The translations under genes were made by a program, and so were the position numbers. A DNA stretch of 64,000 nucleotides from Psammoneis japonica (Eukaryota), in assembly GCA_008632985.1 (NCBI GenBank), contig QPGO01000023.1, positions 493,681 to 557,680 of the forward strand. The letters are read 5' to 3'. The notes beneath the pieces are model-generated. The model worked only from the letters and a program-made list of their open reading frames with translations. It searched no databases and was not told the DNA's origin. Positions 1-57,238 of the stretch are shown here, one piece after another (within the stretch, counting starts at the first letter, position 1; each line of letters opens with the position of its first letter).

Positions 1-1100
1 TGCCATGGCTGTGTGAGCTGAGATCAAAGAGTGCTGGTTCTTGGGAGACATTCATGTGCTTCCATTCATTTTCTGGTCAACTTGGGCTTTTTCTCATTTC
101 TTGTGTCGCTGCATCATTTTACAACATTTTCTTGACCCACACTGTGTGTTTTGATGTGTTTTGTGTTGCAGTGAAATGAGGCCTCTGCTTGCTCGTGCTG
201 CCAACAGTTTTTCCTGCATGTGGCTGCCAGCTGCCAGCTGCCACTCTCTAGCTGCTGCCAGCTGGAGAGCAATGGGAGTCATTCAAAAATGTCGCAAGAG
301 TCACAGCTGGCATTTTGCATGAGAAAAAACACCAAATCATGCAGAAATGTGCACAATGTCATGCAAGAGGGTGGTTGGAGCCAGTGACTTTTTGGGAACT
401 GAGTTGAAATGTCATCTGACCAAAGGCATTTTGATTTGCACAGAAAAGAGCAACACAACCTTTGGTCAGACAACATTTCAATTGATTTCCTGAGAAGTTT
501 GACATTCAAACACGGATGGGTGGACAGACTGCCAACAATTGTTTCTGGTGCTCTTTTGCACAATTTCCACACAATGAGCATGCGGCATCTTACGTGATTT
601 CATCCTCTGACAAAGTGACAAGTCAAGAGCAACTCCGTCAGTCACACCGAGGTGTGGACATGGCGCAACATGCCACGTCTCATTAAAATCAACAAAGGAC
701 ACAGAAGTGAGAGAACATTGGCAACAGCACCGCTGAGAATCGAGCGGCACTGACCTGCATCTTCGTGCGTGCTTTTCCAAATTTGATGTTGCTTTGAGGT
801 TTTAAACAAAACAGAAATCCACAATTCTTGATGACACACAGTGGGGCCAACCCAGCAGGATGCATTGTGCGGTTGCTCCCAATGATGAAAAAAGAAATGG
901 GGAAAACGGTGCAAATTTGAGACATCATGCCGCAAAGTGGACATGCACCATCTGCTTGCTTCATTGTGCTCGCTGCACTTGGCTGAGAAAAGCAGGAATT
1001 CCACAGTGCACACTCACAGCATTCAACGATGAATGTCCACAATGCACGCTTGTCTTGGATGACGTTGCTTGTCCAATCAGATTTTCGTGCCGACACGTTT
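1..1100. mobile_element. Degenerate repeat-derived sequence, TpA-depleted; family not identified
   Basis: Almost no TA dinucleotides, Cys/His-rich Tyr-free ORFs, frames broken by TGA; abuts a palindromic tandem repeat. No recognisable domain. Confidence 0.4.
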
Positions 1101-1212
1101 CTGTTGAAGTTGTTGAAAGTCACGTCTTTCAACGAAAAGTTGCTGAAAGTCATGTCTTTCAACAAAAAGTTGTTGAAAGTCATGACTTTCAACAAAAAAA
1201 AGTGTTGAAAGT
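1101..1212. repeat. Tandem ~30-bp palindromic repeat (ACTTTCAACAA-AAAG-TTGTTGAAAGT), 3-4 copies, with one more copy at 2831-2858
   Basis: Units cacgtctttcaacgaaaagttgctgaaagt / catgtctttcaacaaaaagttgttgaaagt / catgactttcaacaaaaaaaagtgttgaaagt; the array resumes as gactttcgacaaaaagttgttgaaagt after 2830. Confidence 0.9.
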
Positions 1213-2830
1213 TAACGGGGACCCCCCGCAAGTCTGTGCGTCCATCCAAAAGAGCATCTTTTTTGATTCCAATGCAACCTTTCTCGTGTTGTCACCGCGA
1301 TAATTTCTGTGGCAGTCTGTTGCATGCCAACCTTGTTCTGGCTGTTCTGTTGGTGATCCTTTTCAACAAATTGTTCACTCTGCTCCTGTTGCTGAGGTTT
1401 GGTTGAAACGATCGCCAGCAGAAAGTGTTTTTTGTCAACAACAATTGTGTTTCTCAATGTCACCGTTGTCAGTTGCCAAACGGTGTCAGTTGGATTGGTG
1501 GTGCATCAAACTAACACGCACTCAGTCAGAGGCACCGGAAACCGCAAAAGCACTCCAAACTGTCTCCTGTGGGAATGCCCACCCATCAAAGAATGGCAAG
1601 CACAAGGGACACAAGCCTGGTTGGAGCTGGGACAACTGCAACTCTTGATTTTGATTTTGTGAACGCTCGGTTCTAAATTGGCGTCTTGGAATCATGTTCA
1701 AACAGCAACAGTGACCACCACTGCCGTGGAGCAACTCCCACAGTCGAGTGTTGGAACCGCACAAATGGCAACCACCACTCGAGCACATCCCACAGTGGTG
1801 CGCAGAGAATGTTCAACACGCCACTCATCTTTGACGAATGCAGAAACACTCTGCCGCAGTGTGTGTTGTGGCATGTGTGTGTTCGCATCCTGCATTGATG
1901 GCAACAACTGCTCAAGCAACTTGTGCTCAACAAAGCGCCACTTTGATGTCTTAAGATGCCAACCACTGCTCGAGCCACTCCCACACAACGAAATGGGGCA
2001 ACCCAACAAGGCAGTCGCTTTGTGTTTTCACGGATCTCCCAACTCCGATCATGCTCTGCAAAGCATCAAATTGTTGTCTTAGAATCATGTGCTGACAGTT
2101 GTTGCCACTCAAGACACTCCCCTGGCAACCCAACATGCTGGTCACGTTGCAATTGCGTTTTTGAGGATAGCCTGATTCCGGCAGTTGCTGCTGGACTGCT
2201 GGGGCTCACATTTGCAAAATCATCCGACAGATCAATGTCAACCAATTTCTCACCGGATCCCATGGTTCTGCCATGATCATTAGTTGCAGCTTCTCAATTA
2301 CTCTGAGGTGGCACTTCTGAACTGACAAAAGTGTCAGGAGCAGCAGCATTGTTTTCATCCATGTAGCCTGCTTCAGACGGTGTCTGAGTGGCTTCCAAGA
2401 CAGCCGTGTCGTCCTTTTCTCTCACTTTGCTTGGCGCCCAATCCTCAGAAGTAAACACCCTTCAGGCTCTTGTGCTTCACAGTAGCTGCACTGGAGGTCT
2501 TCACCCGACCAAGTGACAGTGTAGCAGCACAACCCTCGGCACAGTTGTCTGCGCGAAGGGTGACCGAATGTGAGGCGCCTCAGAAGGCAGACGAGATGTT
2601 GGACTGAACAACTCCCAGAAAGATGCCACACAGTGGGGCCCACAATATAAGGCCACTGTCCATCCATACCCATTGAAAGGCCTCCGGAAAGGCGGTGACA
2701 AGAAGCCTTACGGCGTCAGTAATCGTCATGGTTGATTTGCTGTTCTTGTGACGGAAAAAACATCGCGTGTCTGTCGCGGAGCGGAATCAGCTACGGGTAA
2801 CGTACAGACTTACGGGGGGTCCCCGTTAAC
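1211..2830. mobile_element. ~1.6-kb TIR DNA element, probably non-autonomous, flanked by TTAA (or TA)
   Basis: gttaacggggaccccccgcaagtctgtgcgt (1211-1241) is the reverse complement of 2800-2830 except for two TA->CA/TG changes; the element interrupts the 30-bp tandem array. No intact transposase seen. Confidence 0.8.
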
Positions 2831-3580: not shown

Positions 3581-5296
3581 ATGAAAGCGCACGGTACACT
3601 GAATCTGTCCCTCTCGTCATCAATGGCTTTGTTCTGTGTTGTTTCCGCCACAACAGCGCATCAGCAGGCCGGTGCTAGCAACATGTGCGACGACAGCAAA
3701 TGTCGCAGCCCCGGCTTTTCGTCTGGAACCGACTGTTGGGCTTCAATCCGGGGTTCCATAATATGGAAACTGCCCTCGTGTATAGACGACTATGAATGAA
3801 AGACCTTTCAAGCATGGCCTCCTTCTACGATGCTCCGTCAAACATCACGTACGGATGGTATACATGTTGTCCTCCAGAACACAACGAACCTCTTCCCCAG
3901 GAAGAATGTACAGACCAAGAATGTACCAGTCCCAATGGCCGAGGGGGAACGGATTGCTGGGCAGATGCCCCCCATGAACCCATGACGTGTGACGGTGGCG
4001 AGTACCGCTTTCCCCGACACACCACCGCTACGTTCCGACACTACTCTCGTTGGTATTATAATTATGTGTGCTGCAAGACAGACAATGGAACTCCGGCGCT
4101 CCGAAGGCAGCTCCACACAGGAGAGGCAATGAGGGTGTTCCTCGGATGCCTGGCCTTATGTTTCACTCTTGTTCTCATCTTGGCTATCCTATGCTCTCGC
4201 CAAGCGCGAAGAAACCCGTTCAATCTCTATCTTGTTACCTTGACGATTCCAGATGCCAGTCACTCTGCCTTAGCCGTTGTATTAGGATCAGGGGCCATCA
4301 GCGGAAACCTAGTATCATCCAGCGCTATGATATTCATAACCTACTTCTACAATGCAGCAAACATTTGGTTAAACTCGGTGGTGGCATTTCAATTGTACCG
4401 GATTCTCCGTGAGACAAAGTTTGCGAGACGAGTTGCCCCACCCTCCATCATGCGTGTGTGGACGGAAACAGCAATTGTCTATTCCTTTGCAATCGCTGTA
4501 GGGGTTGGTTCTGTTTTCATCTTTAGACGTCTGCAGTTTCGCGAAGACTTTCATAAGATTCTCGGGGTTCTGTGGGTTGTTATTGCTCTTGTCCCCCTTC
4601 TATACGTTGGGTACATCTGTGTCCGTATTTGGATGGGCAATTTGCTCTCAATTTCTCGACGGACAAGAGTGATGGCACTCTACTTTTTGAGAATCATCCT
4701 TGTATATTATCTTTTCTTTCTTCCCTGTGCCATTTTGCAAGTCGTCGAAGCAGGAAATGTTGATTGGGACGGGCTACCTTTGACTTACGTCCATTGGTAC
4801 GTTGTTTGTAAAAGGCGGTATTGCAGTCTTAGTATCACATATTTCATCCATCGTTTCATGCTACGTGTTCTTCAGGTACATATCTTGTTTACAATCAGTT
4901 GCGTCAGTGTTAATGGCTCTAACGAAACCCGAGGTGCTCGTTGCGACGAAGAAATTGCTACTGTGCGCCTTTATGAACCACCAAAGTAATGCGGATGGAG
5001 ATACTCCGAGTGATGCTATTGATATGTTCTATCGATCCGACTCGTCAGAGCCGCTGACAGGTTCAGTCAGGAGACTTTCCACTATTCTTGTTTGGGGGGA
5101 GTTATATCGAAAGAACTCGTCCTCACGTGTTGTAGATCAAGGCATTGATAAACAGGAGGCCGTAGAGAGAGAAGACGCATCTGCTGGCAGTAGCCAGCAT
5201 GATGAAGAAGAAGGAGAAGCACCATGTTGTGAACTTGCTTCCGAAGAGTCGTTTCGGGAGAACGAACTGGATAAAAAACGATCACGCAATTGCTGA
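3581..5296 (+). CDS. Multi-pass (7TM, GPCR-like) membrane protein with Cys-rich extracellular N-terminus, copy 1; 1-nt frameshift near 3796; intron 4797-4875
   Basis: Signal peptide, two C.SP....TDCWA Cys repeats, hydrophobic helices with RRNPFNLYLVTL motif; GT..AG intron restores W-Y-I-S-C-L-Q; gactatgaatgaaa versus gactatgaagtgaaa in copy 2 shows one missing base. Confidence 0.75.
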
Positions 5297-5724
5297 TAGT
5301 AGCAGGCACGGAAAGCAAGTGTCTCCTCTCCCCTCACGTCAACAACCACCGCAATAAGAACATGATTGTTCTGTTGCCACATCTACTTCATTGATGGCAG
5401 CTTCACCCAGCACAGATCGTTCACTCAAATGACAGAAAAATGGAGAAACCTCCTTCATGTATACACGCTCACGAAGAAAAAGTGCGGGGTCGAATTTCTG
5501 ATGGAGTCGATCGCGGAAACTTTAGTCGAAATGATTAGATGACTGGATTGGTAAGGACTTGATCACGAATATTCAGAGCCTCAAAATATTTTCTGCGGGA
5601 CTGAGCCCGACATCGAAATTAACTTGCAGTGATGTTAAACTTTTAAGTTTTTTCGTACACTCAGCCAGTAACATTCACATTTTCCGCCCTCTTTGGTGTA
5701 TGGACAACAGCCTTGCTATAGAGG

Positions 5725-6894: not shown

Positions 6895-7118
6895 TGGTGG
6901 CTGTTATTTATGATTGGAGTACAGCCGCAGGGACAAGATGTAAGGAGAGAAGGAAGTATAATACCGTAGGGCTCTAGTTGTTGTAATCTCTTGTAACTTG
7001 TAATACAGAGTGCTTGCTTTGTGCCTTGCGCGCGTCACGCTCCAAAAAATTTACTGGGGGAGCTTGGAAGAGACACGGATTTTTACTTTCACTTCACGCA
7101 AAAATCAACATCGCAGCC

Positions 7119-8059
7119 ATGACGATGACGAAACACAACCCCGCATGTAATGCGCATCGAGTCAATTGAGCCTTGACAGTGTGGAGACGGTGTCACGGTC
7201 TTCATTGAAAGATGATGATGTGAGAGCGACTGGAGCGGCCCCAGCGACGCCGACTACAAGTCAGACTCGGAAAGCATCAGCGGCAGCCTCCTCTGCTGCG
7301 GATGATCTCAATCCAAAAGATTGTCAACACATTATGGATCATGTTGACAAGTGGTTCAATGAGCAGCTAGAAATTGTGTGTGTGGATGAAAAGCTTTGTG
7401 AAGCCGGCTCGGACAAGGTCATGCCGATGCTGAGCAAGAATCGCGACCAAATGAAGGCCATGAGCAAGAGTGCGCTGCATTTGTAGCCCCAGAACTCTCC
7501 GGAGGAATTGCTGCAGCAACTTGAACTGTTTGAGAGACTGCACAAGTTGCATGACCAAAAAACAATTAAAAGGTGCATCCTGAGCACATGCTTGGAAATG
7601 ACGAAAGAGCTCCGGCGGGATTTGTCATGCTGGCTCGGCAGCGAGTTGACGCCAGAAGGTCACGTTTTGGACAATGATGGCGAGGCTCCTGGGGATGCAT
7701 TTTTGCGCCTGCACTAGATGCCACCAAATATAGAAGGTCTTGGAGACAAGGGGTTTGAGAAAACAGATCGTTTGTCTCCTCGCTTTGCCAGAATTCGGAT
7801 GCCACGGTTGTTGCGAGAACGAGAAGTCAAGCAACATCATGAGCTGGAGCTCTCCGACAAGCATGATCTTTGTCGAGCACGGCACCCTGTGGAAACTACT
7901 TTTGCTCGTCTGGTGGCAATGGCTGGCCTTCGTGATGGAGTGCCACATGAAAATTTGTGCCTGGTGCCGCACATGCTGGAATGGGGTCACGCCGAGATGA
8001 ACGTTGGTTGGCCACTGCGAAAGCCGGGAATGAACAGCGGTCTTCCATGCGACTGCTGA
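7119..8059 (+). pseudogene. DDE_Tnp_4-type (ISL2EU/Harbinger-like) transposase relic, internally deleted
   Basis: C-terminal GDKGF...P....Q...E.....L.RARHPVET.FARL...L...VP......N...PL pattern matches the ISL2EU/Harbinger catalytic C-terminus; stops and frameshifts present. Confidence 0.7.
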
Positions 8060-8194
8060 CATCTCTAATTTAGAAGAAGTGCTGTTTATCTTGTTTGTTG
8101 TTGATTTTATCATTGTTCTTTTTAAGTCTGCTGCCACGCACAAAGTGCTGCTGTCCACTGCTGTCAGAACTGGCATCGCAGCGCCGCAAATTTT

Positions 8195-8930
8195 GTCGGC
8201 AGCATGTCTGGATGAATGTTCGGATCTGCTAGAGGTGTGAACACAAAAGCAACCTCATTGGAAAGCTCTCGTTCTGTAGATGATGTCATTGCTGTTGATT
8301 GTGTCACAGTTCTGAGTTGTTCTAAAGCAACGCCCACTTGAGCGAAATGCATTGGGATTTGGGCGCTCAAGAGTGCGGGGTCGGCAGATTGTCTAGATGA
8401 TGATTCGGATGTGCTAGAGGCATGAAAACAAAAGCAACCTCGTTGGAAAGCTCTCGTTCTGTAGATGATGTCATTGCCATTGATTGTGTCATAATTTTAA
8501 GTTCTTCTAAAGCAACGGCCACTTGAGCGAAACGCATGGGATTTGGGTGCGCAAGTGCGGGGTCACGTCGGCAGCACATCTAGATGAACATTCGGATCTG
8601 CTGGAGGCATGAAAACAAAAGCAACCTTGTTGGAAAGCTCTTGTTCTGTAGATGATGTCATTGCCATTGATTGTGTTGTAAGTCCAAGTTCTTCTAAAGC
8701 AACGCCCACTTGAGCGAAACGCATTGGGATTCTGGCGCGCAAGTGCGGGGGGTCAGCAGCACATCTAGATGAACATTCGGATCTGCCAGAGGTGTGAAAA
8801 CAAAAGCAACCTCGTTGGAAAGCACTTGGTCTGTAGATGATGCCATTGCCATTGATTGTGTTTGTCGCAAGTCTAAGTTCTTCTAAAGCAAGGCCGACTT
8901 GATCGAAATGCACTGGGATTTTTGGGCGCG
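8195..8930. repeat. Tandem repeat, four copies of ~185-187 bp
   Basis: Units start at 8195, 8380, 8567 and 8752 (gtcggcagca.gtct.gatg...); the minus strand repeats the peptide IPMRFAQVGVALEEL...SSTERELSNEVAFVF. Confidence 0.95.
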
Positions 8931-9141
8931 GAATCCAGCCAGCTGTTGTTTGCAGGAAGCCGCAGATCTGGATCTGCTTCTAGCGGACGAATCATCGAAG
9001 TCCACACAACTGCAACACATTTCTCATAAAACATTCTTGTTTGCTGCTGGCAGAAGAAGAAGCTTGACACAGCAAACATTGGAGTTCATTTCATGCAAAG
9101 CATCGCTGTTCATTTCCAGCGGATGAACAAGCGGCGCGGCA

Positions 9142-10196
9142 TCAAGAAGTCACTGCAAATGTGATCTGCTCGATCAAAAATGGAGTGTGATTGACAGGAG
9201 ATGGTGGCATTGCTCTCTCAAACATGCCTTGGTCTGTGCACCTCTGCATCTGACGAAACACACACAGAGTTGCAAGAACATGAGAGCACATGCCATGCCC
9301 ATCGTAGCAACCGCAGCAGGAGAACAGATGTGGCAAAAAATCCTTGGATGAAGCATCAAAACCAATGTAAACTGTGTGTCCTTGTTGACAGTTTTGCCAG
9401 ACCAAACTGAGAGCTGTGGCAGAATGTGATTGAAAACCTTGGAAAATGCAATGTTGTGCATGTTTTTGTTGCAGTCCGTTCCAAGGAGATTGGCCATCGC
9501 CGCCCAGTGCTGGAATGAATGCTCCCTGGTGCGATGCCCATCAGCAAGATTGTCACTTTGGCACTGCTTCCACTTGCAAGCATCAAAGTCAACCTTGTGA
9601 CAAATGAGCTTTGCACCAAGGATTGCTGTGTCACCATCCTCTGTCATGACAGCATCAATCCGAACCTCTGCCTCCATCTTCACGAGCTGATGTTCTGCTT
9701 CAAACGGAGTGCATTCATGCTCAACGTTGTCACACTTCATCCACACTGCCAAGCAGATGATCATGTCTGCATTTGAATCACACAGAGCTTGGACACACTT
9801 TGCTGCCTCGCCACAATCAGAATCAGGTGTCGGAATGCCATCTCGGGCTTTGCCAAAGAACTCCTTCATCCACTTGTTGGCTTTCTGGATGGTTCTGACT
9901 CAAGCCTCTTGGGCCACACTCTTCATCGGATGACGACACCCATCAAATGCAAAGACTGGAGCAATGCCCACAGACACAAGCTTCTTGTGTGTTGACTGAA
10001 GAGCTGTCAATGAGCTCTTTGGCGGATGCGGTGGATCCGACATCCTGCACTGAGCCGCGGCATCCTTGTGACAGTTCTTGTGCAGCCAAACCGACATGTC
10101 GACCCCAAGTCTCTTCCCTTGGGCATCACTGAAGGGAACAGAGGGTTGAGTGTTGATGGGGCCAAGCGCCTTGAGCCACAGACCTCCAACTCCCAT
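9142..10196 (-). pseudogene. XPG/Exo1/FEN1-family nuclease fused to a SWIM zinc finger (TE second gene), degenerate
   Basis: XPG-N: MGVGGLW...GKRLGVDMSVWLHK...PVFAFDG; XPG-I: PFEAEHQL...IDAVMTEDGD; H3TH: LLGTDC (consensus GxDY); then CGCYDG.GMCSH (SWIM). In-frame TGA at 9900 and a frameshift near 9400. Confidence 0.8.
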
Positions 10197-11129
10197 CTTG
10201 CGTGACGGGTTCTGTCATGGTCGCTGCATTGCAAATTTCGTGCAAAACAAGGAGGAAAAAAAATCTGATTCGGCGTTCTCCCCCAGCAAATTTTCTGGAG
10301 CGTGACATTTTTCTGCGCGCGGTTCTGCGGGGTGCGAGACTCCTTGTGCCTGCCTTGATTGGTTGATTTTGTCTTGCCGGCACAGCAGCAGCACTCACAA
10401 AGCACACAAAGTGGAACCTGAAATCCGCAGAGAGAGCTTCCTTGTTCCATTGATGAGCGCCCCTCTCCAGGGTGCATTTCCTGATGAAAAAGGGGGGCAG
10501 CACCAGCTCTCACTTCTTCTTCTTCTTGTTGCAAGGGAGCTCCCGCATGGCATGATGTTGAGCAACAAGCCTTGACTCTTTGCCCCCAATGAGTCACTCC
10601 CAAACACAAACATGGCAAACAAAGCATCTGCTGTCAAACATGATGACACTGGCAACAAAGAGAGGTGGGCAAGAAGCTGGTGTGCCCTTCTCATGGAAGC
10701 TGCTTTGTCAATTCCTTGTTTGAGCTCAAATTGGTCTGCAGGTTGCCATCCTTGCCATTGCCAGCCTTGTTGTTGATCACAAGGAAAGACAAGCACCTTT
10801 CTTGGCAACAAAGTTGCAAGTGCAAGAAAATCTCCCCTGGCACCACACCAACAAAACAGCTTGTTTTTCATTTGTGCTGGAGGCAGGTTTGGCAGCCCAG
10901 AAATTGTGGAGCAGCAGCTCAACACCCATTGAGGAAATGGCTGCTCATGAATCTTGAAGCCAAAGCAGCATCAAAGAACATTGAGGCTTTGTTGCCACAG
11001 GCATGGCAGCTGCTTCATCAAGTCCAAGAAAGAGAAAGTCACCAGCCCTGGTGTGCATTTTGCCCACATTGTCAGCTCTTTCTTTGTCTTTGTTGTGAGC
11101 AAGAACACAGTGCTGCTGGGTGCTGGGCA

Positions 11130-12340
11130 AACCAGAATCACATGCAGGCGGGTGAGTGGCATGCACATGTGTTGTCCTCCAGAACACACAGTGCATCTGC
11201 TCTTCAGCAAGAATGTGCCAACCAGCCAGTCCCAAGCTGGTGCCGCAAGCTGAGTCCCAAGGGGGGAGGGTCATTGCTGGTGGGCCCCCCCCACAAGCCC
11301 ATGATGATGTGTGGTGGCAACAAGAGCCGCACTTTCCCAACACACCACACTGCTGTGTTGTGACACTGCTCTTGTTGGTGCCACAATCGTGTGTGCTGGA
11401 AGATGGGCAGCAGAGCTCTGCCATGCCAGAGGCAGCTCTGAGCGGGAGAGACAATGACAGCATGTTTCTGACACATTTGGCTCAATGTTGCTTTCACTCT
11501 TGCTCTCATCTTGGCCACCACAGTGTCTTGAAAATTGAGAAAAAAACCACTTGATCTCCTTCATCTCTTGTCACCTTGATGACTCCAGATGTCAGTCACT
11601 CTGCCTTGGCTGCTGCTGCTGTGTTGAAGCCAAGGGCTGTCAGCAGAAATGCGCCATTGTTTTGCCAATCCTGTGATGTTCATTGCCCACTTTTGTGGTG
11701 CAGCAAACCTTTTGTCAAGCACATTTGCAGCATTTCAAGCATGCAAGATCCTCTGCAAGACCGCAGCAGCAGGTTGTTGGCATCAGTGGCTTTGATGAAA
11801 CCTCTCCCAAATGCTTGCTGCAATGAAACAACTGCTTCTTTTGGCTGTGCCGCCATGTGGATGACCAAAGCAATGCAGGTGGAGATGCTCTGAGCTCTGC
11901 TGTTGAAACACTCTGTTGATCTGAGTCATCAGAGCTGCCTGGCAGATTCAGCGAGCGGACTTTCTGTCATTCTTGTTTTTAGGAAGTTGCGCGAAAAGAG
12001 CTCCTTCTGCATGATGCACAGAAATGAGGCACTGAGAAACATGAGGCTGGGTGCAGGAATGATGCAGCATCTGCTGGCAGCAGCCAGCAAGACAAAGAAG
12101 AAGCACTGTCATGTGGTGAATTTGCTTCTGAAGAGTTGTTTCAAGAGAACATGCTGGGGGTGTCAAAAAAGATCGCACAATTGCCAAAGACAGCAGCGGG
12201 CATGGAAAGCAAGTGTGTCCTCTCCTCTGCCATTTCAAAAACCACTTCAACAAGAACTTTGATGTTTTGTTGCCACATCTGCTCAATTGGCAGCTTCACC
12301 CAGCACAGGTTCAAGTGGCAAAAAAAATGAAGAAACCTCT
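11130..12340 (+). pseudogene. Third, heavily mutated copy of the 7TM gene
   Basis: Alignable by eye to 3841-4300 and 5165-5450 (e.g. tgttgtcctccagaacaca; gcatctgctggcag.agccagca; ggaaagcaagtgt; ggcagcttcacccagcacag). Confidence 0.85.
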
Positions 12341-13146
12341 GCCCCATGCACTCACACAAGTTTGCTGCAAGAAGTGCTGGCACAAGACAGAAGGTGTTGC
12401 ACAAGAGAACTGCCAGAGAAGTGGACAGATTGCTCATGGGAACAACAAAAGCTTTGGCTCCTTTTCTTCTGTTTCCAGGGGCTTTCTGCTTTGGGCTTTT
12501 CTTGCTCCTCTCAGAAGAGGCTGTCACGACCCCAGCGCAATCTGCGCGGCTTCTGCCAACCAGCAAGGAAGAAGCTCGCAGATGAAGCATGGAACTCTTT
12601 GCTTTTTGTTGACCATGCTTGAGGAGGAGGTGCACCTGCAGGAGACAGATCAAACTTGCTGTGAGTTTGAGCAGTTGCCCAAACAACGTGCAAGAGCAGG
12701 CGAGCAAGTGCTGGAGCAATGGCCGAGAATGAGGAGAGACAAGACCAAGAGCTGACCTGGCAACCAAGAGACATCTAGAAATGTGAGGGTTGCGTGCTTT
12801 TTGCAGGCCACTGTTTCAACAACAGTGGGTGTGATGGGCAAAACCAAGCCACAAGCCTTGATGGTTTGAGCGCCGCGCAGCAATGGCACACAACATGGCA
12901 ATGAGAGCGAGACGCGGAACCAGAAGGGCGGTTGTGTTCACGTTGAAGCTGTGCCGACGCGACGCGCACCTGCAACATTGAACATATGGATAGTCTACTT
13001 ACTGTACAGGAGGGCCCTGCCTGCCTACCGAGCAGCGAACGAGCGATTAGTACACAACACACAACACAATTACAACGACGAACACCAACATCATCGCTTT
13101 TCGCCCGTTCTTCTCTGTTTGGCCCTCTTCCGAATATGCATTGTCC

Positions 13147-14675
13147 ATGATGAAAGCGCACATCATACCGAACCTTTCCCTTTCGTTATTAATGACTTTG
13201 ATCCACGTTGGCACTACGACAGCATATCAAGCGACTAGTGCTAACAACAAGTGCACGTGCGACGACAGCAAGTGCCGCAGCCCCGGCTTTTCTTCAACGA
13301 CTCGAACCGACTGTTGGGCTTCAATCCGGGGTTCCATAATATGGAAACCACCCTTGTGTATAGACGACTATGAAGTGAAAGACCTTTCAAGCGTGGCCTC
13401 CTTCTACGATGCCCCGTCAAACATCACGTACGGATGGTATACATGTTGTCCTCCAGCACACAGCGAACCTCTTCCCCAGGAAGAATGTACAGACCAAGAA
13501 TATACCAGTCCCAATGGCCGAGGGGGCACGGATTGCTGGGCAGATGCCCCCCATGAACCCATGACGTGTGGAGGTGGCGAGTACCGCTTTCCCCGACACA
13601 CCACCGCTATGTTCCGGCACTACTCTCGTTGGTATTATAATTATGTGTGCTGCAAGACAGACAGTGGAACTCCGCCACTCCGGAGGCAGCTCCACACAGG
13701 AGAGGCAATGAGGGTGTTTCTCGGATGCCTGGCCTTATGTTTCACTCTTGTTCTCATCTTTGCTATCCTATGCTCTCGCAAAGCGCGGAGAAACCCGTTC
13801 AATCTCTACCTTGTAACCTTGACAATTCCAGATGCCAGCCAGTCTGCATCAGCCGTTGCATTAGGATCAGGGGCCATCAGCGGAAACTTAATATCACCAA
13901 GTGCTATGATATTCATTAAACACTTCTACAGCACAGCAAATGTTTGGCTGAATGCTGTCGTGGCTTTTCAAGTATACAGGATTCTCCGTGAGACAAAGAA
14001 TGCGCGACGAGTTGCCCCACCGTCCATCAGGCGGGTGTTGACGGAAACAGCAATTGTCTATTCCTTTGCAGTCGCTGTAGGTGTTGGTTCCGTTTTCATC
14101 TATCGTCTGCAGTTTCGCGAAGACTTTCAAAAGATTCTCGTGGCTCTGTGGTTTGTGATTGCTCTTATCCCCTTTCTTTACGTGGGGTACATCTGCGTAC
14201 GTATTTGGATTGGCAACTTACTCTCAATTTCTCGACGGACAAGAGTAATGGCACTCTATTTTTTGAGAATCATCCTTGTATATTACCTCTTCTTCCTTCC
14301 TAGTGCAATTGTGCAAGTCGTCGAAGCAGGAAATGTTGATTGGGACGGGCTACCTCTGCATTACATACATTGGTACGTGGCTTGTGAAACATGATCATGC
14401 ATAATGCACCAAATATTGATATTGTCAGACATTTCATCCCCCACATTTATTTCAGGTGCATATCTTGTTTACAGCCAATGGCGTCAGTGTCAATGGCTCT
14501 AACGAAACCCGAGGTGCTCGTTGCGACGAAGAAATTGCTACTGTGCCGCTGTATGGACGGCCAAAGCAATGCGGATGAGGATGCTCCGAGCTCTGCTATT
14601 TCAATGTTCTATCGATCCGACTCGTCAGAGCCGCTGACGGGATCAGTGAGGAGGCTTTCCACTATACTTGTTTAG
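13147..14675 (+). CDS. Multi-pass (7TM, GPCR-like) membrane protein, copy 2; intron 14373-14455; C-terminal tail cut short by TAG at 14673-14675
   Basis: Close paralogue of 3581-5296 with an uninterrupted exon 1 and the same intron position; TAG where copy 1 has TGG. Confidence 0.8.
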
Positions 14676-15155
14676 GGGGAGTTATATCGAAAGAACTCCT
14701 CCTCACGTGTTGTAGACCAAGGCATTGATGAACGGGAGGCCGTAGACAGAAAAGACGCATCTGCTGGCAGTAGCCAGCAAGAAGAAGAAGAAGAAGCCCC
14801 ATGCTTTGAACTTGCTTCCGAAGAGTCGTTTCAGGAGAACTCAATGGATATCCAGGATCACGCAATTGCTGATAGTAGCAGGCACGGAAAGCAAGTGTCT
14901 CCTCCTCCCTCACGCCAAGAACCACCCGCATAAGATCTTGACTCCCGGTATATTCTGTTGGCACATCTACTTCATTGACAAAAATTGTTTCGTCTGGCAT
15001 AGGTAGTTCATTGAAATGACGAAAAAATGTGGAGGAACCGCTTAAAACGCACAATGTTTCTCTAATACCGCTGCAAAGCGCTGAGTGGCACACAAGATCA
15101 GTGTTAAAATAGAACAGATTACTTAGCAATAAGAAATGCAATACATATTATTTAA

Positions 15156-38665: not shown

Positions 38666-40206
38666 GATTCGACATCAACAAGGCTTCGCGCAACACTCGC
38701 AACAACCAAGACTCGCTCGCAAAATCTCGCTCCCACTTTTTCACACGTTGCAGCTGATGTGGTGTTGTTCATTCGTCTCACTCGTTTTCTCATCGTGGAA
38801 CCTTCTGATGACACAGGGTGTCTTTCAGGCATGTGCATCGGTCTGATTGCCCCCCCTCTTTGGGCAAGAATGGGGTGTGTGGTTTGCTTCTTGAAGACAC
38901 CAGACCAGCCACAAGGAGCTTGCAGTGGAGAGCTGGCAAGCAAAGCACTGGGCTGCGCCACAAGGCACTGGCTGATGGGACAGCATTGGGCAAGCACAAC
39001 CACAAGCATTTTCCTGAGGGCACTTTGCACCACATGTGACAAAGCCAGAAACATGGACTGAAAAACACAGACAGAGCCAGGTTTTGCTCAACTGGCCACC
39101 CAGAATTCAAGCAGGGAGGGTGCAGCCGGAATGAAGAAGGCTGCAGGTCAATTTGAGGTCCCTCATTCTTCCCACATGCCGAAATCTTGGTCCCAGTGGG
39201 AACTTGCTTTGCATGTTTGTCAACAGCCTGCTGCAGAAGCCACGGCTGCACTGGAAATCCACAAAGGTGGCGGTGCGTGATGGGGTGGATCTCGCAAATT
39301 CTCTCAAGATTTTGTGATGCATGAGGCCAAAATTTGGGCGCAGCATCCACAGATGCTTTGGGAGAGATGCTGTGAATTTGTCAAGGCAGGCACTTCTGAA
39401 AGCATGGGTGGGGAAGGCCAGTGCTTGCTGCCAGCGATCTTTGTGAAAATCTTTTGAAGAGGATGACACTGCGTCTTCTCGATTGGAAACTTCAGAGAAT
39501 TGTTTGAACACAGTGGGGCCAAACCCGCCAAAGTGTGCATTGAATTTTGGAGAACAAAGAAGGTGCAGATCCGCAGCAGTGGCCACAAAGCTGGCAGGGC
39601 AAGGCTTGGAAAACAGGCTGCCCAAAATGATGGGCTGGCAGCAAAACACTCCTCACAAAAGATGCCACACAACTCCACAGTTCTCCAGCGTGCTGTGGGA
39701 GCTTTGCTGTCAAGCATGTAAAACCACAGCACCTCAAGTCACAGACAAGCTGCTTTGCAGGCAGAAGCCCAGCCAAGGGCCACAAGTTGACAGCCCTGCA
39801 ACATCTTCCCTTTTTCTCCTTTTTCCTTCTTTTCCTCTCTCTCTTCTCCTTTTTCTCCTTTTCAGTTTATTCTTCTGGGCCGCCTCCGGCGGCCACCTCT
39901 TTCATTCTTCCCACATGCCGAAATCTCCATGCAAAGGCAAATTTTTTGGGCTAGTTTGGGGGACGTCTTCGGAAGCGAGACTGTCGAAGAAAGTTACGTA
40001 GAATTTGTACTAAAACAGTCTGTCAATCAGTGCGATTGGGGTATTTGGGATCGCTGGACAGATCCTACGTGTTTTTTTGTGCGTACAAATTGTACTGGGA
40101 AAACCCCCAAACGCACTGGCGATCAGACCGCCTTCGTCGATCTCACTTCCAAAGACGCCCCCAAGTTGGTGACCGTTTGAATTTAACGGCGAGCGAAGCG
40201 AGCCTC

Positions 40207-43200
40207 AACGCCCAAAAGTAACCCGGATGTTAAATCTTTGGTTTGTTGAACGCACCGCGACATCATTGCTGCGGCACAGCAGTTGGCTACAATGGCAGCT
40301 TGGGTGCAAGTTACATTACAAAAACATTACAAACTGAACAATAAAAAATGTGATATGGGCATGATCAGCAAGTTTTGTTGCGAGCAACAGCGAGCCACAA
40401 TGGAGTTGTTGCAGTGCGCGCAAAATCTCTCTGGCTAGAGAGAGGAGTCGTGCGCTCGGCGAGTTGCACTAAAGCTCGTTGGAAGTTGTTGCAAACATTG
40501 CTTCTTTGGGAATGCAATCAACTGCCTGTCCTGGCCATTCAATTTTGTCACACACTTTGCCCTGTTGTATCCTCCTGGACACTGACTTGGTGCTGGGCAC
40601 CCCAGAACCTTGCAGGATTTGCGTCGCCGCTTGCTTTGATGATTCACTCGATTCACTGACATCCTCGGCACCTCTGGATGAGGCACATGTGGTTGGTACA
40701 TTGGGGGATGACAACACTGTTGTGGAAGTGCAGGTGGCACTTGTGGCAGAAAGGCAACCGGCTGTGGGAGGATGTGACCTGCGGGAGGAGGGGGTGGAAT
40801 CATTGCAAGCGGAGGACATCCTGCTGGCTGCAACAGTGGCATGGTGTTGACTGATTCCTCGGCAGCATGTGCAGGCAAGCTTTCTTCAGTCATGCTGTCT
40901 TCTTGTCTTGTGCCACTCACTGGCTTTGGAGTTGTCACTGAGCCGTCGGCCATCTCTTCTGGAACATGCTCCAAAGCATCATCAACTGCCACCTTGGTGT
41001 TGGCTTCTTGCAGTGCTTCCTGCTGCACTTGATTCTTCTGCCATTTCTTGCAGTGCTTGGAAATGTGCTCTGGGTGCTTTTTGCAAATGTTGTTCTCACC
41101 AAGAGCAAATTTGTTCCATTTCTCAGCGATGCACTCGAATGTGGAGGCGGAGGACATCGATCGATTGTTTCGAAGCACCTCTTGAATTAAGCGACAAAAC
41201 AATTTCTTTTCCTCTCTAGTGCGGATCGGTGTGTGTGGAACTTTGGATCCCTGGCAAAGGGCAAGGCATCGCAATGAAGCTGTCAGATTGCTCACGGGTT
41301 CCAACCCAGTTGCACCTTGGTTCTCGTGTGCCTCAGAGAGCGGAACGACTCCGTGTGGTGATTTGGAAACAATGTGGTCCGAGGCACGACCCCAGTGTTT
41401 CCATTTCACTTCTCCAAACAAATCCTCGTGTGTTTCATTTATGATGTCAAGTGCCAAACTGTCACAGTGTCCAACTTGCGGAAAGTCTGGTCGATTTCGT
41501 TCGCTAGCCCGCCAGTTGCAGTGATGACGGAGCACGGCAAGGAGGTTGTCACTGTGTCGTGGACCCGCGTGTGTGTGACCGAAGGACTTGGTTAGCTTTT
41601 GGTGCAATGATTCAACAATGCTTGTACCCCTGAAGCAACAATGCAATGGCAAGCCATCCTTGTCAGTCGTGTGTTGTCCTTTTGCGTCGGTCATCCTTGC
41701 GTGGAAACCAACTGCTGGCGGATCCGAGAATTCACCACGCTTGATCGCTTCTAAGACGAGATCTGCCCTTTTTCGTGCTGTTTCATTGAAGAGCAACTTT
41801 CCCGTTTTTGTGTCAACTTTGTCCCCAAAGAAATCAAAAACGGCTTTCACTCGCTCGTGCAACACATGGGGGGACGGAATGTGTCGCTTGACTCTTTTGG
41901 CGACATGTCCAAATCGACATCGCAAGCAGCTCTCCCAGTCACCTCCCTTTTGAGCTAGAACACGTTTCACTCTTGCGACATCAATGGCATCCATTGTGAA
42001 GAATGCACCACGTAGTGCTCAAAAATGTGCCGCTTTAAAGTCATGGTCCATGGGAACCTTGACCCGGTCCATCCCGTGAAATGCGTCCCCAAGAACCCGG
42101 GTGATCAATTGATGAAGTGCCCAGTCTTCACCCAACTCATGAAGGCTGTCATCACCAAGCACATGATTCTCGTCCCTCATCTTTGTTGATCTCTCTTTAG
42201 CATGTCTGTCGGCATTGTTGACAAGCTTGGCAATTGCAACAGACAGTTCATCTACAATGTCGCTCTGCCTTTGTGTGCAGGGCTCGTTTTCCTCCTCGTC
42301 CCCGTCCAAATCCTCGTCACCCAATGCAAGTGGCATTGGTGCCATGTTTTCTGCACACTCATCTTTGCTGTCATGTGTTTCAAGATTTTTCAGCTCCTCG
42401 TCAAGTCTCTCTGTTTCATTCGGTTGCAGTGTCAAATCTTTGCTCTCATCGGTTTCATCATTGTCGCGGTTCAACTCATCAGTGTCGTCACGTTGCATCG
42501 CTTCCTCTTTTTCTTCGTCCTGAACAGAGTTGCCGATGTCATCGTCCGCCCCCTCTCCCACTTCAACAGCTGGCGAATGGTCACTCTCCTCTTCCACACC
42601 CGCGGCTGGCATGCCACAGTTTGCATCACCCATTTCTTGTTCTTCGCCATTCCAATTCACTGCTGTGGGCTCGGATGACTGTCTCAATCGGCAATTTGCT
42701 TCCACAACTTCAAGTGGACCGCTGGCCAACAAAGCAAGGTCGCCAAACGATCACATGTCACACATGTCTCGAAGCTCTCCATGCTCCATTCTCCCGCATT
42801 TGCAACGTTGCCCTTTGTTTGTCATGGGAAAGTGGACTGGAGCTTGAGCTCTGTGTGTCTTCAGAACTCGGACAAGAAATCTTTTTGGAGCAAGTCTCAC
42901 ACCATGTGGTGCATCCCCGTCTTGTTGCACCACCACACCTGATGCAATTGCATTTGTGTCCTTTCTTCCAGAGGGCATTGTGTCAACCACCATCCCTGCC
43001 TCGATTTCGTGTTGTTTGAGTCTCAAAGCAAGGTTTGGGAATTGACGGCAGTGGTGATAAAGTCGCAAGCCGGCTTCCCCGTCATTGGCGCAGCACTTCA
43101 GGGCCTTTTCGGTCAGCTCATTACGCCCATCAAACACATGCCCAACTTGGATCTCCTTTTCTTTTGGCATGTGGCAGTTCAACGCCTTCTTCGCAAGCTC

Positions 43201-45380
43201 TGACAATTTGGTTTCCCCACGTCTTCTTGCAGCAAGGCCACGGTCAACCACCATCGTGCCAACATCAATGACATTTTTAGGTCAGACGAGACTTGGGGTA
43301 GGATGCTCGTCAATGAGTTTTGTGAAATCTCCATTCACCCAGCGTCCCGTAAATGCAACATCATCGCGCTTGAAGAGCATGTTCAGCTTCGTGAGAAAAA
43401 GTCAGTTGCTTTGCATCCGCCCAATGTGAACAACTAAAATGTCATTCATCACATCTGATGCAAGGATGACAACACTAGTTTTCCCGTGGAGCCGGCCTCC
43501 GTCATGTGCTGGATTCTCGAGATCGAATGAAATAACCTTGTTTTCATCATCACTCTCGTTGTCAAGTGCCTCTGAGAGAACAGTGAGTGCCGCTGTGGCT
43601 TCCTCCTGTGTTTCCAAGCATGTGATGCCCCCACGAAGCGGCAAGGGAGTCAGTCCTTCCGGGACATCTTCAGTGTCGTTAACTCCAATCTTCAACCCAT
43701 TGAAACAGTCCTCCAAAAACACTTTGTCTCTGGGAGGGTTGTCGGAGAAAGCAAACGACGGATCTAGACCATGTGAATGCAGGAGCACTAAAATTGGCTG
43801 AAGCTGTCGATGGTTGTCGCTCAGCTCAAAATGCTGCATCACTGTTTTGCCGCATTCGTTTGCACCAGATTCCAGCACCTCGAACATCTTCTCGCCGCCC
43901 CAACGCATCATCCATTTTGGGAGCTTGAACGATGCATCTAAACTTAAGACAAAAGATGTTGCAAGCCTCTTGATGCACTCTGCATCAAGCATCCGTCTGG
44001 ACTGCTCCACAACCACACAGAACATGTGCACGAGCCACGCTGAACAAGGGACTGCTCCACCCAGTTCCTCTGAGAAGTGCTCGGGACAACGTTGTATTTC
44101 GGATGGGTCTTGGCAAAAGCTGGTGCACCCAAGAGCCATCTGTTTGTCTCCCTGCCGTTGTCGAGCAAAGGAGCCCCACTGCATTTCCTTGCTCTGCCAA
44201 GCCTCGCAGTGATTCCGCTTTATTGTTTCGGCTTTAGCTGCAGGACCAATGCCCTTGACGGCGTCTTTAATGATTGTTTTCATCAGGTTCTTATCAATTC
44301 CAGAGGTGTGAGACAGATGACAAGGAAAGCATTCAAACACATGGGGGTGTTCAAGACGAAGCTGCTCCAACACAGCGTCATTGGTCAACTGCCACGTGAA
44401 TTGTTTTCGATCCTTTTTCGCGACACCCATTTCCGCCTGAAGACCATTTTCTCGTTGGCACGGCTTGCACAAAAATTTCTCCGGTGCTTCAAGAACATAA
44501 TTTTCATGCTCACCACAGACAAGGCGACTTGGGTTGCTTTTGCCACAGGCCATCATTCCTTTGTCGCATCCGCAGCCACCGCATTTTGGAGTGAAGTCCT
44601 CCCCTGGCATTCCACGGAGCATCCATCTAAACTTTTTGAGGCGATGGAATTTCTTCCAGCTGTCTCGAATGTCAATTGGATGATGAACAAGGGGGAACTT
44701 TGGAATGTCCCAGAAATCACCTTCTTTCACTGCAGCCAAGCTTTTCTTTGATTCGATGTTCAACAAGCATTCTTTCACCAGACCCGACCGTCTTTTCATG
44801 CTTTGCTTGGCGTTCACCTGATTGTCGAAAATGTCTCTCTGGTTTGAAGCCTCAGACATCCATGTTGCTTCGACAAGATTCATTTGTTGCTGCTCTTCTG
44901 GTGGCTCATGCTGAGGTGGTTGTGCGGCAACAGGTGCCGGTGGTCGGTGGTTCTGCTGCTGCTGGTGGTGCTGGAGGCACTGGTGGCGTGTCTTGATGAT
45001 TCGTTGCTGACTCACGTCCAAAGTGAGAAAGGATGGCTCCTCTTTGGGATGGACGACCATGAGTCATGGCGGTGCGAGGCCGTCCAGCACCTTGCCTGGC
45101 GCCACCGCTGCTGCCACGTTTGCCGGCCATGGTGGAGAGTGCGGCCGCAATCGGCACATTGTCTCAGTGCGTGTTTCATTGGCCTTTTCTCTTCTGCAGT
45201 TGGATGCAACAGACACACAAAGCATGGATGCAATGATGCCACTTTTCTAGAGATTGGCCATCGACAAAAGAGAAGAAATTTGTCATTGCGATTTTTCTAG
45301 AGCTCTAGAAAAATAGCAGCATCGCATTATGGTACAGGTCATCCCGAGGTTACCCTAAGTAACATCCGTTTGGGAGGGTT
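40207..45380 (-). mobile_element. ~5.2-kb DDE DNA transposon with imperfect terminal inverted motifs
   Basis: Left cccaaaagtaacccggatgtta versus the reverse complement of the right end cccaaacggatgttacttagggtaacc; encloses one large minus-strand transposase relic. No clean TSD found. Confidence 0.65.
40435..45130 (-). pseudogene. Large DDE transposase relic (DUF6729-like Cys N-terminus, DxxH motif) with an inserted DEDDy 3'-5' exonuclease domain
   Basis: GGARQGAGRPR N-terminus; CGGCG...C..C...FPCHLSH.SGIDK; LSLDASFK, FSDNP, VLGDAFHGMDR, RGTSIVESLH; exonuclease VISFDLE...VNGD...LKCCAND. Broken by TGA stops and frameshifts. Confidence 0.75.
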
Positions 45381-50422: not shown

Positions 50423-51255
50423 TGTCAAGATCGTCGACACCTTATTTCTATGCTGGGAAGGCGGCAACATCACGAAGATGGGGGCGGTTGACAAAGTGTG
50501 CGGGTCGAGATGTTGTGGAAATTCTGCTGAGCCGAAAGCTCTCACTCTGTTGCACGACCGATTGTCGCAGCTCTGTTCTGGAATCATCGAGACATTCGAG
50601 ACTGACTGAGCACTCAAAGTGCAAGATGTGGAGGTCGCAACATCAAAGCAATCACATCTCATGTGTTGCATTTGAAGTGTGTTGTTCTCAGTGTGCTCTC
50701 CCGCACTCGTGTCAGCAGCAGCTTTCTGCTGTTTTCGATGGGTTCCAGTCCCAGGTGGGACTCCATGTGACATTGGGCCTGCAGAATTCTACGTGCGAGC
50801 TCTGTGGCATTGACAGTTTGCCCGGGCACGTTCTTCAGACATTGAAGAATGCACCCAGTGTGTTTTCATTCTCACAAATGTTGAAAATGGAAAGCCTTTG
50901 GCTTTGCAAACAGGGAGCATGAAAAAATTTTGGAGAATGTGACATGCAGAAATGTGCACGCGTGACATGTGACGCGATCCAAAAAACCATTGATGTCACA
51001 GTGCAGCAGTGCGAGGTCCCACCCAGAGCTGCAACGTTTCTTTTGCGGAGCGCTTTCCAGACGAGACCAGAATGTGTGACGTGGGGATGCTGTCAAGGTG
51101 GATGGTTGCCAAATTGTGAGTTGACAGAGAACCACATGGCGCGACACTGGGTCAAGGCATCGATGAGCGGCACCAGCCATGTGGGGTCAATGCATCACTT
51201 TCCCGTCTTGCCCCAGTCTGTCAATGGACAGACCACATGGTGTGCTGTCGTCACA
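50423..51255 (-). repeat. 3' LTR (833 bp, TG...CA)
   Basis: Minus strand begins TGTGACGACA and ends TCTTGACA; 51081-51255 is directly repeated at 61248-61418. Confidence 0.75.
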
Positions 51256-51266
51256 TCCCTCCTTCC
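51256..51266 (-). other. Polypurine tract GGAAGGAGGGA
   Basis: Immediately precedes the TG of the 3' LTR on the minus strand. Confidence 0.75.
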
Positions 51267-52444
51267 AACAAGAGAGCCTCGCTTGGATGAAAAAGAGTGC
51301 AGACATCCTGTGGACTGTGTGAGAGGGGGTGTGATGGTCGCAGATGGCCCTCCTCCATGGAATCACACCCACGATTGGATCCATGACTGACTTGCTTTTT
51401 TGGAGATCAAGGAGCGCAGAGAGGTGGACGCAGAACCCGCCTTGCTCAGTGTGGCTTGGAACATGTCCCAGAACCCGGGTGAGGTCAGAGTTCTGTGACA
51501 ACATCCTTCATGTGTTGCTGCACTGTTGTCACGTGCTCAGTTCTGTGTGGCTGTCTGGTGTTGGAATCAAACCGGTGCATCCGTTGTGGCACCGTGCATG
51601 TGATTTTGGTGCACCTGCCTTGTCGCACCCAAGTCGGCAACCCTGGAGGGGACGGTCACTGGGACAGCCAATTTTGCCAGTGTTGCAACCCTTTTTCTTG
51701 GTGGCAAGGACCTGTGGCAACATGACAGTGGGTGCAAAGGCTTGCGGTGTGACGCATGAGCAGCAACAAATGAAAGCAGGTGGATGATTTGAACACACCA
51801 TGACTTCAACTCTGCTTGGCTTGAAAGTTGAGTGTTGCACTGGATGATGCACTAGAGAGCCAAGCCACTCTGATGGCACTCATCACATGTCTGACACCTT
51901 GAGGTTTAGCAGAGGGGCTTCTGTCTCCAGTTGTGCCCAACACGTCTCAGCAATGTGATGGGATTTTTTCGTTGACTTGTTGTTCTTTCTGTGCTTGACT
52001 TGAATCACTGAGAAGTCAAAAGGCCCTGCCACAAAATGTTCCGTGAGAGGGAACACAAGGGAGGCCACATGATGGATGATTTCTCTGATGCAATGACCCG
52101 CACTGCCTTCTTTGGGTTTGCCAGCACATGCATTGGAGGTTGGTTGTCGGCTCTCTGTTTCATCATGTTGGGCCAAAATCGACCATCCACTGAGGACTTT
52201 GTGTGAGCATCTTTCTTGAAAGTCTTGGTGCCACCATCTCATCATGCAAATGCCGTGTGTCACAGCATGGTGCAGATTGGATTTGGCCCAATCAACCTGG
52301 GCCATTTGAAGCACTGGAAGTTGATCAGTTTCTGGGTGGCAGGCGATGAAAAACATCTTGGTCAATGAACATGCTGTTGACTTGCAGAGTTTTCTGAAGA
52401 ACGTGGCAGTCTTGGGGTGAACCGTGCAGGCAATTGGGGGGGGG

Positions 52445-52499
52445 NNNNNNNNNNNNNNNNNNNNNNNNNNNNNNNNNNNNNNNNNNNNNNNNNNNNNNN
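52445..52499. other. Assembly gap (55 N)
   Basis: Run of N following a G homopolymer. Confidence 1.
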
Positions 52500-57120: not shown

Positions 57121-57238
57121 TGTTTGTGGAGGTGAAGGTGCCTTGGATTGGTGCAGCAATCTGCCGAATTCCTTAAAGTCCGTTTGTGGAGGCAAAGGTG
57201 CCTCAGATTGGTGCAGCAATCTGCCAAATTCCTCAAAG
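57121..57238. repeat. 60-bp tandem duplication inside pol
   Basis: 57121-57180 and 57181-57238 are near-identical. Confidence 0.95.

Follow-up and report, generated by a model that had tools for sequence, protein, structure and literature searches.

How does one copy of a gene come to lose every TA dinucleotide that its two tandem siblings share, when the siblings themselves are spared? The question is raised by a stretch of 64,000 nucleotides from the diatom Psammoneis japonica (assembly GCA_008632985.1, contig QPGO01000023.1, positions 493,681 to 557,680 of the forward strand), called the window in the following, in which three related copies of a membrane-protein gene, A, B and C, lie in tandem. 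A reading made from the letters alone, hereafter the sequence-only reading, had treated A and C as intact, had taken their agreement as the ancestral state and had noted that B differs from it mainly at TA and CG. It concluded that TA is ancestral and that a host gene copy, and not only transposable elements (TEs), was hit. Here, we ask what has changed in B, on which branch it changed, how far the change extends beyond the gene, in which sequence context it occurs and what kind of process could have brought it about.

The fate of each dinucleotide in B was counted at sites where A and C agree, over columns 381-980 and 1472-2040 of a three-way alignment (B 11161-11760 and 11775-12318). All 37 TA dinucleotides common to A and C are changed in B, 16 of them to TG, 13 to CA, 3 to CG and 5 to something else, and 39 of the 40 common CG dinucleotides are changed as well (22 to TG, 10 to CA). 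For the remaining 14 dinucleotides the figure is 322 of 774, which differs strongly from that for TA (Fisher p = 2.7e-14) and from that for CG (p = 1.2e-13). The result does not depend on MAFFT: BLAST pairwise alignments contain no unchanged TA either, with 0 of 32 against A and 0 of 26 against C. When single bases are counted, the 62 A/T sites inside TA have undergone 33 transitions and 3 transversions, compared with 52 transitions at the 320 A/T sites outside TA (p = 3e-9). The three-way tabulation that the sequence-only reading had called for thus finds, as that reading expected, that the bases of TA change more often than other A/T bases and that they change predominantly by transition; the eight TA and CG changes that it quoted as examples can all be read in the alignment. 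Its statement that B differs mainly at TA and CG holds as far as enrichment is concerned and is overstated in extent, as these sites make up 134 of 758 sites and receive 74 of the 215 substitutions in B. The two outcomes at TA, TG (16) and CA (13), indicate that both strands are used about equally, and a runs test detected no strand-clustered (processive) events in B (28 runs against 29.6 expected, p = 0.37). In addition, 20 of 125 sites in B carry a double transition between CA and TG, a higher share than the 21 of 649 counted at other dinucleotides (p = 5e-7). Such an excess suggests repeated passage through TA or CG intermediates, and hence a lasting process rather than a single burst.

On which branch did TA disappear? 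The identity between A and C is 86-91% (86% across 1909 bp) and that of B to either is 66-72%, so that B is the outlier and the tree has the form ((A,C),B). In such a tree the agreement of A and C alone leaves the branch of the change undecided, and the rule that this agreement defines the ancestor is invalid by itself. The conclusion drawn from it, that TA (and CG) is ancestral, is nevertheless borne out once an outgroup is added. The outgroup is the protein P0001 (43% identity); a search of 5.8 billion proteins yielded no other outside homologue. There are 90 amino-acid sites at which B departs from a residue common to A and C; P0001 matches A/C at 46 of them, B at 4 and neither at 40. Tyrosine codons, which begin with TA (TAY, where Y is a pyrimidine), are common to A and C at nine positions; P0001 has Tyr at seven of them, and B has Cys at four, His at two, Ser at two, Arg at one and Tyr at none. 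Since P0001 sides with A/C, TA was present in the ancestor and was lost on the B branch. Independent support for this direction comes from the relic of an EXO1-like nuclease gene in the TA-free domain around B: at nine aligned positions where its homologue P0273 has Tyr, the relic has Cys at four, His at two, Phe at two, Val at one and Tyr at none.

What is left of B is clearly a pseudogene. BLASTN aligns B 11864-12339 with A 4980-5452 (71.4% identity, E 2e-61) and B 11170-11610 with A 3865-4274 (66.9% identity, E 7e-24), and equivalent matches to C are found at 13547-14904. The copy carries in-frame TGA stops and frameshifts, its first ~95 codons are unrecognisable, and it retains 1 TA and 13 CG in 1158 bp; a deletion of ~490 bp has removed the later transmembrane helices together with the intron. 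The homology begins near 11160 and not at 10850, from where the sequence-only reading had counted the copy: neither MAFFT nor tblastn found credible homology to A/C in the upstream part 10850-11160. A and C are 8 kb apart, with B between them in tandem orientation. The description of both as intact fits C, the first exon of which is continuous, and does not fit A, which has a 1-bp deletion relative to C at 3796-3797 that splits its reading frame. At this point a read-derived contig (depth 68 of 68) has an extra G; this could mean that the frameshift of A is an error of the assembly or that the contig stems from another copy. As for the gene product, a Pfam search returns no family, and exon 1 encodes six long helices in residues 183-395 according to hydropathy and a low-confidence AlphaFold2 model (predicted local distance difference test score, pLDDT, 38). 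The seventh helix that the label 7TM of the sequence-only reading calls for would have to be encoded by exon 2.

Is the TA-free sequence a property of the genome or of its assembly? A read-derived contig of 3157 nt with a k-mer depth of 66 spans 10131-13290, from which it differs by 2 substitutions and 5 gap letters, although the reads come from a public run that is possibly the assembly's own source, so that the support is not fully independent. The match indicates that the TA-free sequence is present in the reads, and the depth of 66, compared with 59 at neighbouring genes, indicates that B is single-copy. B and its flanks (10378-12981) lie at single-copy depth, and only 7340-9075 and 9944-10377 are multi-copy (k-mer contig depth 282 at 9944-10377). 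Being a tandem, single-copy pseudogene, B bears out the claim that a host gene copy was hit besides TEs, and the EXO1/XPG-like relic is affected alike. Other read-derived contigs link 7768 to 9988 and 7464 to 9396, omitting ~2 kb, which points to related copies elsewhere in the genome without the satellite-bearing segment.

The loss of TA reaches well beyond the gene. Over the whole window the observed-to-expected ratio (o/e) is 0.38 for TA and 1.4 for CA/TG, and the distribution is bimodal. Gene-bearing stretches have a TA o/e of 0.5-0.9 (normal DNA as a whole 0.6) and a CG o/e of ~0.9-1.2, and in the blocks 1-2250, 9001-12984 and 50501-64000 the values are 0.02-0.1 for TA, 0.2-0.8 for CG and 1.5-1.9 for CA/TG; the zones 7001-9000 and 38751-45250 fall in between. 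By o/e in 1-kb windows, the blocks measure 2-13 kb. The block that contains B ends sharply on the right at 12985, only 160 bp ahead of the start codon of C. The depletion includes non-coding DNA and is equal on both strands. The pooled depleted blocks contain 3.2 TA and 24.3 CG per kb, compared with 40.9 and 54.2 in normal DNA, and their CG o/e is 0.39 versus 0.96; CA+TG amounts to 221 versus 144 per kb. The combined deficit of TA and CG (67.7 per kb) is thus roughly balanced by the excess of CA+TG (77.0 per kb). The blocks are hardly repeats of one another: within the window, only one such pair was found, of 175 bp, matching 51081-51255 with 61248-61418.

TA loss and CG loss can be separated, as several 1-kb windows have a TA o/e of 0.08-0.25 and yet a CG o/e of 0.78-1.03. 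The same holds at a finer scale in a CG-rich patch at 12860-12975, within the TA-free zone near its right edge and on the promoter side of C, where TA is gone and CG is kept.

Does the process read more than the two bases of TA? In B, the strand that was hit has a pyrimidine 3′ of TA at 22 of 28 sites, as compared with 12 of 28 on the spared strand (p = 0.013). The TA dinucleotides that survive in the depleted blocks (n = 62) tell the same story from the opposite side, as 30 of them are YTAR and only 2 RTAY (R, purine). Among 1391 TA in normal DNA, 230 are YTAR and 436 RTAY (odds ratio 28, p = 1e-11 versus the survivors), and restriction to the 457 TA of normal DNA outside open reading frames (ORFs), with 83 YTAR and 124 RTAY, gives an odds ratio of 22 (p = 3e-9). 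Intermediate zones show the same shift in a weaker form (YTAR 33 versus RTAY 11). The directional data place the context effect 3′ of A and not 5′ of T. In the satellite at 8195-8930, the TA that remains is mostly in CTAG, CTAA and GTAG, which are hypermutation-resistant contexts.

What kind of process would leave such a scar? The answer that we favour, with a probability of roughly 0.7, is that B, a tandem paralogue within the A/C family, lost its function and ended up in a silenced domain of ~4 kb that was rewritten by two domain-wide processes, one specific to TpA and the other a decay of CpG. Both would act on whole domains rather than on homologous pairs. The first would convert TpA into TpG or CpA, on either strand independently and preferably at 5′-TAY-3′; it would be near saturation and would still be acting on newly arising TA. 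Its chemistry would most likely be the conversion of adenine to inosine in DNA by a deaminase like ADAT2 or TadA. The second would be a slower decay of CpG to TpG or CpA through deamination of 5-methylcytosine, which is proposed because diatoms methylate silenced TEs at CpG. As both would end at CA or TG, together they would explain the 1.8-fold excess of CA/TG. The domains would be targeted as silenced chromatin, presumably spreading from adjacent repeats. That A and C were spared, keeping 74 and 73 TA, and that the TA-free domain continues beyond the homologous stretch both argue for targeting of a domain rather than triggering by homology.

Several observations weigh against this explanation. 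As many as 141 of the 215 substitutions in B fall outside TA and CG sites, and B is also an old, diverged copy. The rate of CA/TG swaps depends on the aligner, falling to 8 of 122 and 11 of 94 in the BLAST alignments. In the pattern, A to G on one strand is indistinguishable from T to C on the other, and the substrates of eukaryotic ADAT2/3 mostly have a purine 3′ of A34, which fits poorly with TAY. At eight conserved Tyr columns, the transposon ORF described below has Phe at three, Cys at two and His, Met and Tyr at one each; the change from Tyr to Phe at three of the eight is a transversion and not the signature seen in B, although it could be TA avoidance under selection. Moreover, the best-matching known case, that of the chlorarachniophyte alga Bigelowiella natans, differs in two respects: the targets described there are viral inserts, whereas a gene duplicate is among the targets here, and the CpG decay seen here is unmentioned in the main text of the preprint (Mettrop et al., bioRxiv 10.64898/2026.01.13.699255).

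Could the same pattern have arisen in another way? The regional process might be retained with a different chemistry, in which the T of 5′-RTA-3′ is modified, for example to 5-hydroxymethyluracil by an enzyme of TET/JBP type, and is then wrongly copied or repaired as C. As TA is self-complementary, all the TG and CA outcomes could equally result from T to C or from A to G, a preference for TAY is equal to one for RTA on the opposite strand, and in dinoflagellates 5-hydroxymethyluracil occurs preferentially at TpA. This thymine route seems rather improbable to us, since our analysis yielded no evidence of thymine modification in diatoms and since the B. natans authors prefer adenine deamination, citing deamination of A in DNA by ADAT2 in vitro (bioRxiv 10.64898/2026.01.13.699255). 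A quite unlikely explanation is a homology-triggered process like repeat-induced point mutation (RIP) with a different target dinucleotide, by which B would have been mutated as a recognised duplicate. B is indeed one of three copies in its family, and the depleted blocks are made up mainly of TEs and repeats. RIP hits both partners, however, and the A/C lineage kept its TA; A and C, which are 86% identical over 1909 bp and would be the obvious pair, are unmutated. Furthermore, the TA-free domain 9001-12984 far exceeds the homologous 11161-12339, and B lies with its flanks at single-copy depth.

Alternatively, the blocks could be integrated viral or other DNA that was already poor in TA and CG, with B captured and adjusted in composition before integration. 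The hypermutable regions reported from B. natans are indeed viral inserts (bioRxiv 10.64898/2026.01.13.699255), and the EXO1/XPG-like relic, part of which is multi-copy, has a single homologue cluster in 5.8 billion proteins. We consider foreign origin very unlikely: that cluster contains an expressed diatom transcript, the blocks hold elements as unrelated as the relic of a reverse transcriptase, a transposon with DUF6729 and exonuclease domains and a flanking satellite, their depletion is graded, homologues of the transposon ORF elsewhere have a normal Tyr content, and B sits in tandem orientation between A and C. A TA-specific mutation process would still be required in any case. It is scarcely credible that errors of base calling or assembly at modified bases produced the pattern, or that it arose by selection against UpA in transcripts. 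Modified bases can give systematic errors in long reads, and UpA is scarce in most transcriptomes, in keeping with which even normal DNA of the window has a TA o/e of 0.6. The k-mer contigs at depth 66 nevertheless reproduce 10131-13290, albeit from a run that is possibly the assembly's own source. Selection on the product of B is implausible in view of its stops, frameshifts and 490-bp deletion, and the depletion reaches non-coding DNA and both strands equally. Biased repair of T:G mismatches (MBD4/TDG, or very short patch repair, VSP, of Escherichia coli) was set aside by reasoning, as its known context, TpG opposite CpG, would create CpG and spare TpA.

B is not the only degraded sequence in the depleted blocks (Table 1). 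Read depth is 4-5x at the N-terminal part of the nuclease relic, and the relic may thus be part of a repeated element. Its one homologue cluster among the 5.8 billion proteins (P0273, 38% identity) includes an expressed transcript of the diatom Attheya septentrionalis named Exonuclease 1. The transposon ORF at 43402-45063 (-) belongs to a family of proteins of ~1500 residues with a DUF6729 and a 3′-5′ exonuclease domain, and has 1 Tyr in 553 residues compared with 2.8% in its homologues; TEs were thus hit too. Within 40435-45063 (-), ORFs of 553 aa and, with one stop, of 770 aa are open despite a TA o/e of 0.1-0.3. When the 136 ORFs of at least 90 aa in the depleted blocks were searched against Pfam, only XPG_N, XPG_I and RVT_1 scored above the cut-offs. 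TA-free DNA has neither TAA and TAG stops nor Tyr codons and is consequently filled, on either strand, with numerous ORFs of 100-250 aa that overlap one another. These spurious long ORFs and their Tyr-free 'proteins' are a trap for gene prediction. In the block 50501-64000, the assembly also leaves a gap of 55 N at 52445-52499.

The window as a whole has the features of eukaryotic DNA, with long ORFs, a few short GT..AG introns and a GC content of 0.49. Among named proteins, those closest to an ORF for solanesyl-diphosphate synthase at 22758-24329 (-) are from diatoms (Nitzschia, Bacillariaceae, Seminavis, Pseudo-nitzschia, Haslea and Thalassiosira; 63-67% identity). An unnamed match reaches 79% and none is identical, so that the proteins of this diatom are absent from the collection searched.

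Table 1. Gene copies, relics and TA-depleted blocks in the window (positions counted from its first letter)
Feature	Position	Strand	Description	Basis or remark
Copy A	3581..5452	+	Paralogue; TA content (74 in 1575 bp) and CG content normal	
Copy B	11161..12339	+	Degenerate TA-free pseudogene copy of membrane-protein gene	Three-way alignment, BLASTN
Deletion junction in B	11760..11775	+	~490 bp gone relative to A and C	Alignment columns 981-1471 gapped in B
Copy C	13147..15039	+	Paralogue; first exon continuous (13147-14376), ~95-bp intron; TA (73 in 1583 bp) and CG normal	
TA-free domain around B	9001..12984		5 TA in 3984 bp; 0 TA between 9369 and 11979	
EXO1/XPG-family nuclease relic	9177..10214	-	XPG_N and XPG_I domains; in-frame TGA at 9900-9902; no Tyr	
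185-bp satellite	8195..8930		3.9 copies, read depth 740-890	Left flank of TA-free domain
Partly depleted zone	7001..9000		TA o/e 0.23-0.33, CG o/e 0.82	Parts multi-copy (depth 346 at 7340-7773)
Further TA-depleted block	1..2250		12 TA, TA o/e 0.07	
Patchily depleted block	38751..45250		TA o/e 0.07-0.33	Long transposon-type ORFs 40435-42750, 43402-45063 (-)
Largest TA-depleted block	50501..64000		45 TA in 13.5 kb	Reverse-transcriptase relic 56406-56855 (-)

How does this scar compare with known systems? RIP in Neurospora and other fungi is similar in that dinucleotide-specific transitions wreck repeats and duplicated genes and leave a strong compositional skew. The skew is opposite, however: RIP turns CpA into TpA and so makes TA, whereas here TA is down and CA+TG up. 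RIP also depends on homology and hits both copies, whereas the similar pair A/C is spared here. The CG half of the pattern resembles the decay of CpG in methylated TEs, with 32 of the 40 CG sites in B changed to TG or CA and a CG deficit in the blocks. Such decay covers that half only, and CG loss lags behind TA loss in several windows. Diatom TEs are described as CpG-methylated through DNMT5a (PMC9998398).

Editing by animal deaminases, that is, C to U on cDNA by APOBEC and A to I on double-stranded RNA by ADAR, likewise disables selfish elements by deamination-type transitions, and ADAR prefers a 5′ U. As described, these enzymes target intermediates of replication and leave their mark on a single strand of retroelement copies. 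In the present case, in contrast, saturation in place extends to both strands of a pseudogene that is not a retroelement and of its flanks, with a near-absolute specificity for TA.

The closest parallel is B. natans. A full-text literature search for TpA hypermutation or TpA-depleted repeats in diatoms found no report, and found the B. natans preprint. According to that preprint, of the 231 mutations that mutation-accumulation lines acquired in two viral inserts, 230 were A to G or T to C, lying on TpA throughout, the de novo mutation rate of these regions is raised ~1000-fold, the genome has 124 clusters poor in TpA and rich in CpA+TpG (cut-offs, a Rho of 0.43 or less for TpA and of 1.52 or more for CpA+TpG), and an ADAT2-like DNA deaminase is proposed (Mettrop et al., bioRxiv 10.64898/2026.01.13.699255). 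The P. japonica blocks, with a TA o/e of 0.02-0.1 and a CA/TG o/e of 1.7-1.9 in 1-kb windows, surpass these cut-offs. In both algae, as far as the preprint describes its case, TpA becomes TpG or CpA on both strands, windows in which TpA is low and CpA+TpG is high are clustered and rich in reverse-transcriptase and transposase domains, and the process is regional and independent of copy number, the insert of a nucleocytoplasmic large DNA virus (NCLDV) in B. natans being single-copy. The targets in P. japonica include selfish DNA, namely the RVT_1 relic, the Tyr-poor DUF6729/exonuclease ORF and the satellite flanks, together with a host-gene paralogue. The hosts are far apart, a diatom (stramenopile) here and a chlorarachniophyte (rhizarian) there. 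The depletion is also deeper here, as the TA o/e given for the NCLDV region of B. natans is 0.45, and a preference for a 3′ pyrimidine is seen, whereas the words 'trinucleotide' and 'context' do not occur in the main text of the preprint. On the other hand, mutation-accumulation lines provide rates for B. natans, compared with a genomic scar alone for P. japonica.

What is new, therefore, is the diatom lineage, the near-saturation, the accompanying CpG decay, the TAY preference and the destruction of a host paralogue with its siblings spared. TA-specific DNA hypermutation had been reported once before, in the 2026 preprint on a rhizarian alga, and its scar in a diatom extends the process to another major lineage of the marine phytoplankton. 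The three-copy family provides a natural experiment: it gives the direction of change, it indicates that similarity is not the trigger, and it reveals that ordinary duplicates can be destroyed in a targeted domain. Testable constraints on the enzyme and on its targeting are given by the TAY preference and by a CpG decay that is separate and slower. As a tentative and still rather doubtful extension, diatoms and chlorarachniophytes might share an old, chromatin-guided DNA-editing defence that deaminates adenine at 5′-TAY-3′ in any silenced domain, regardless of the origin of the DNA, so that silenced host duplicates would be erased and transposons would be driven to shed TA, for example by exchanging Tyr for Phe, as an escape. 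If true, this defence would correspond to fungal RIP in function, would be opposite to it in chemistry and would need no homology, and would possibly be widespread in the lineages of stramenopiles, alveolates and Rhizaria (SAR).

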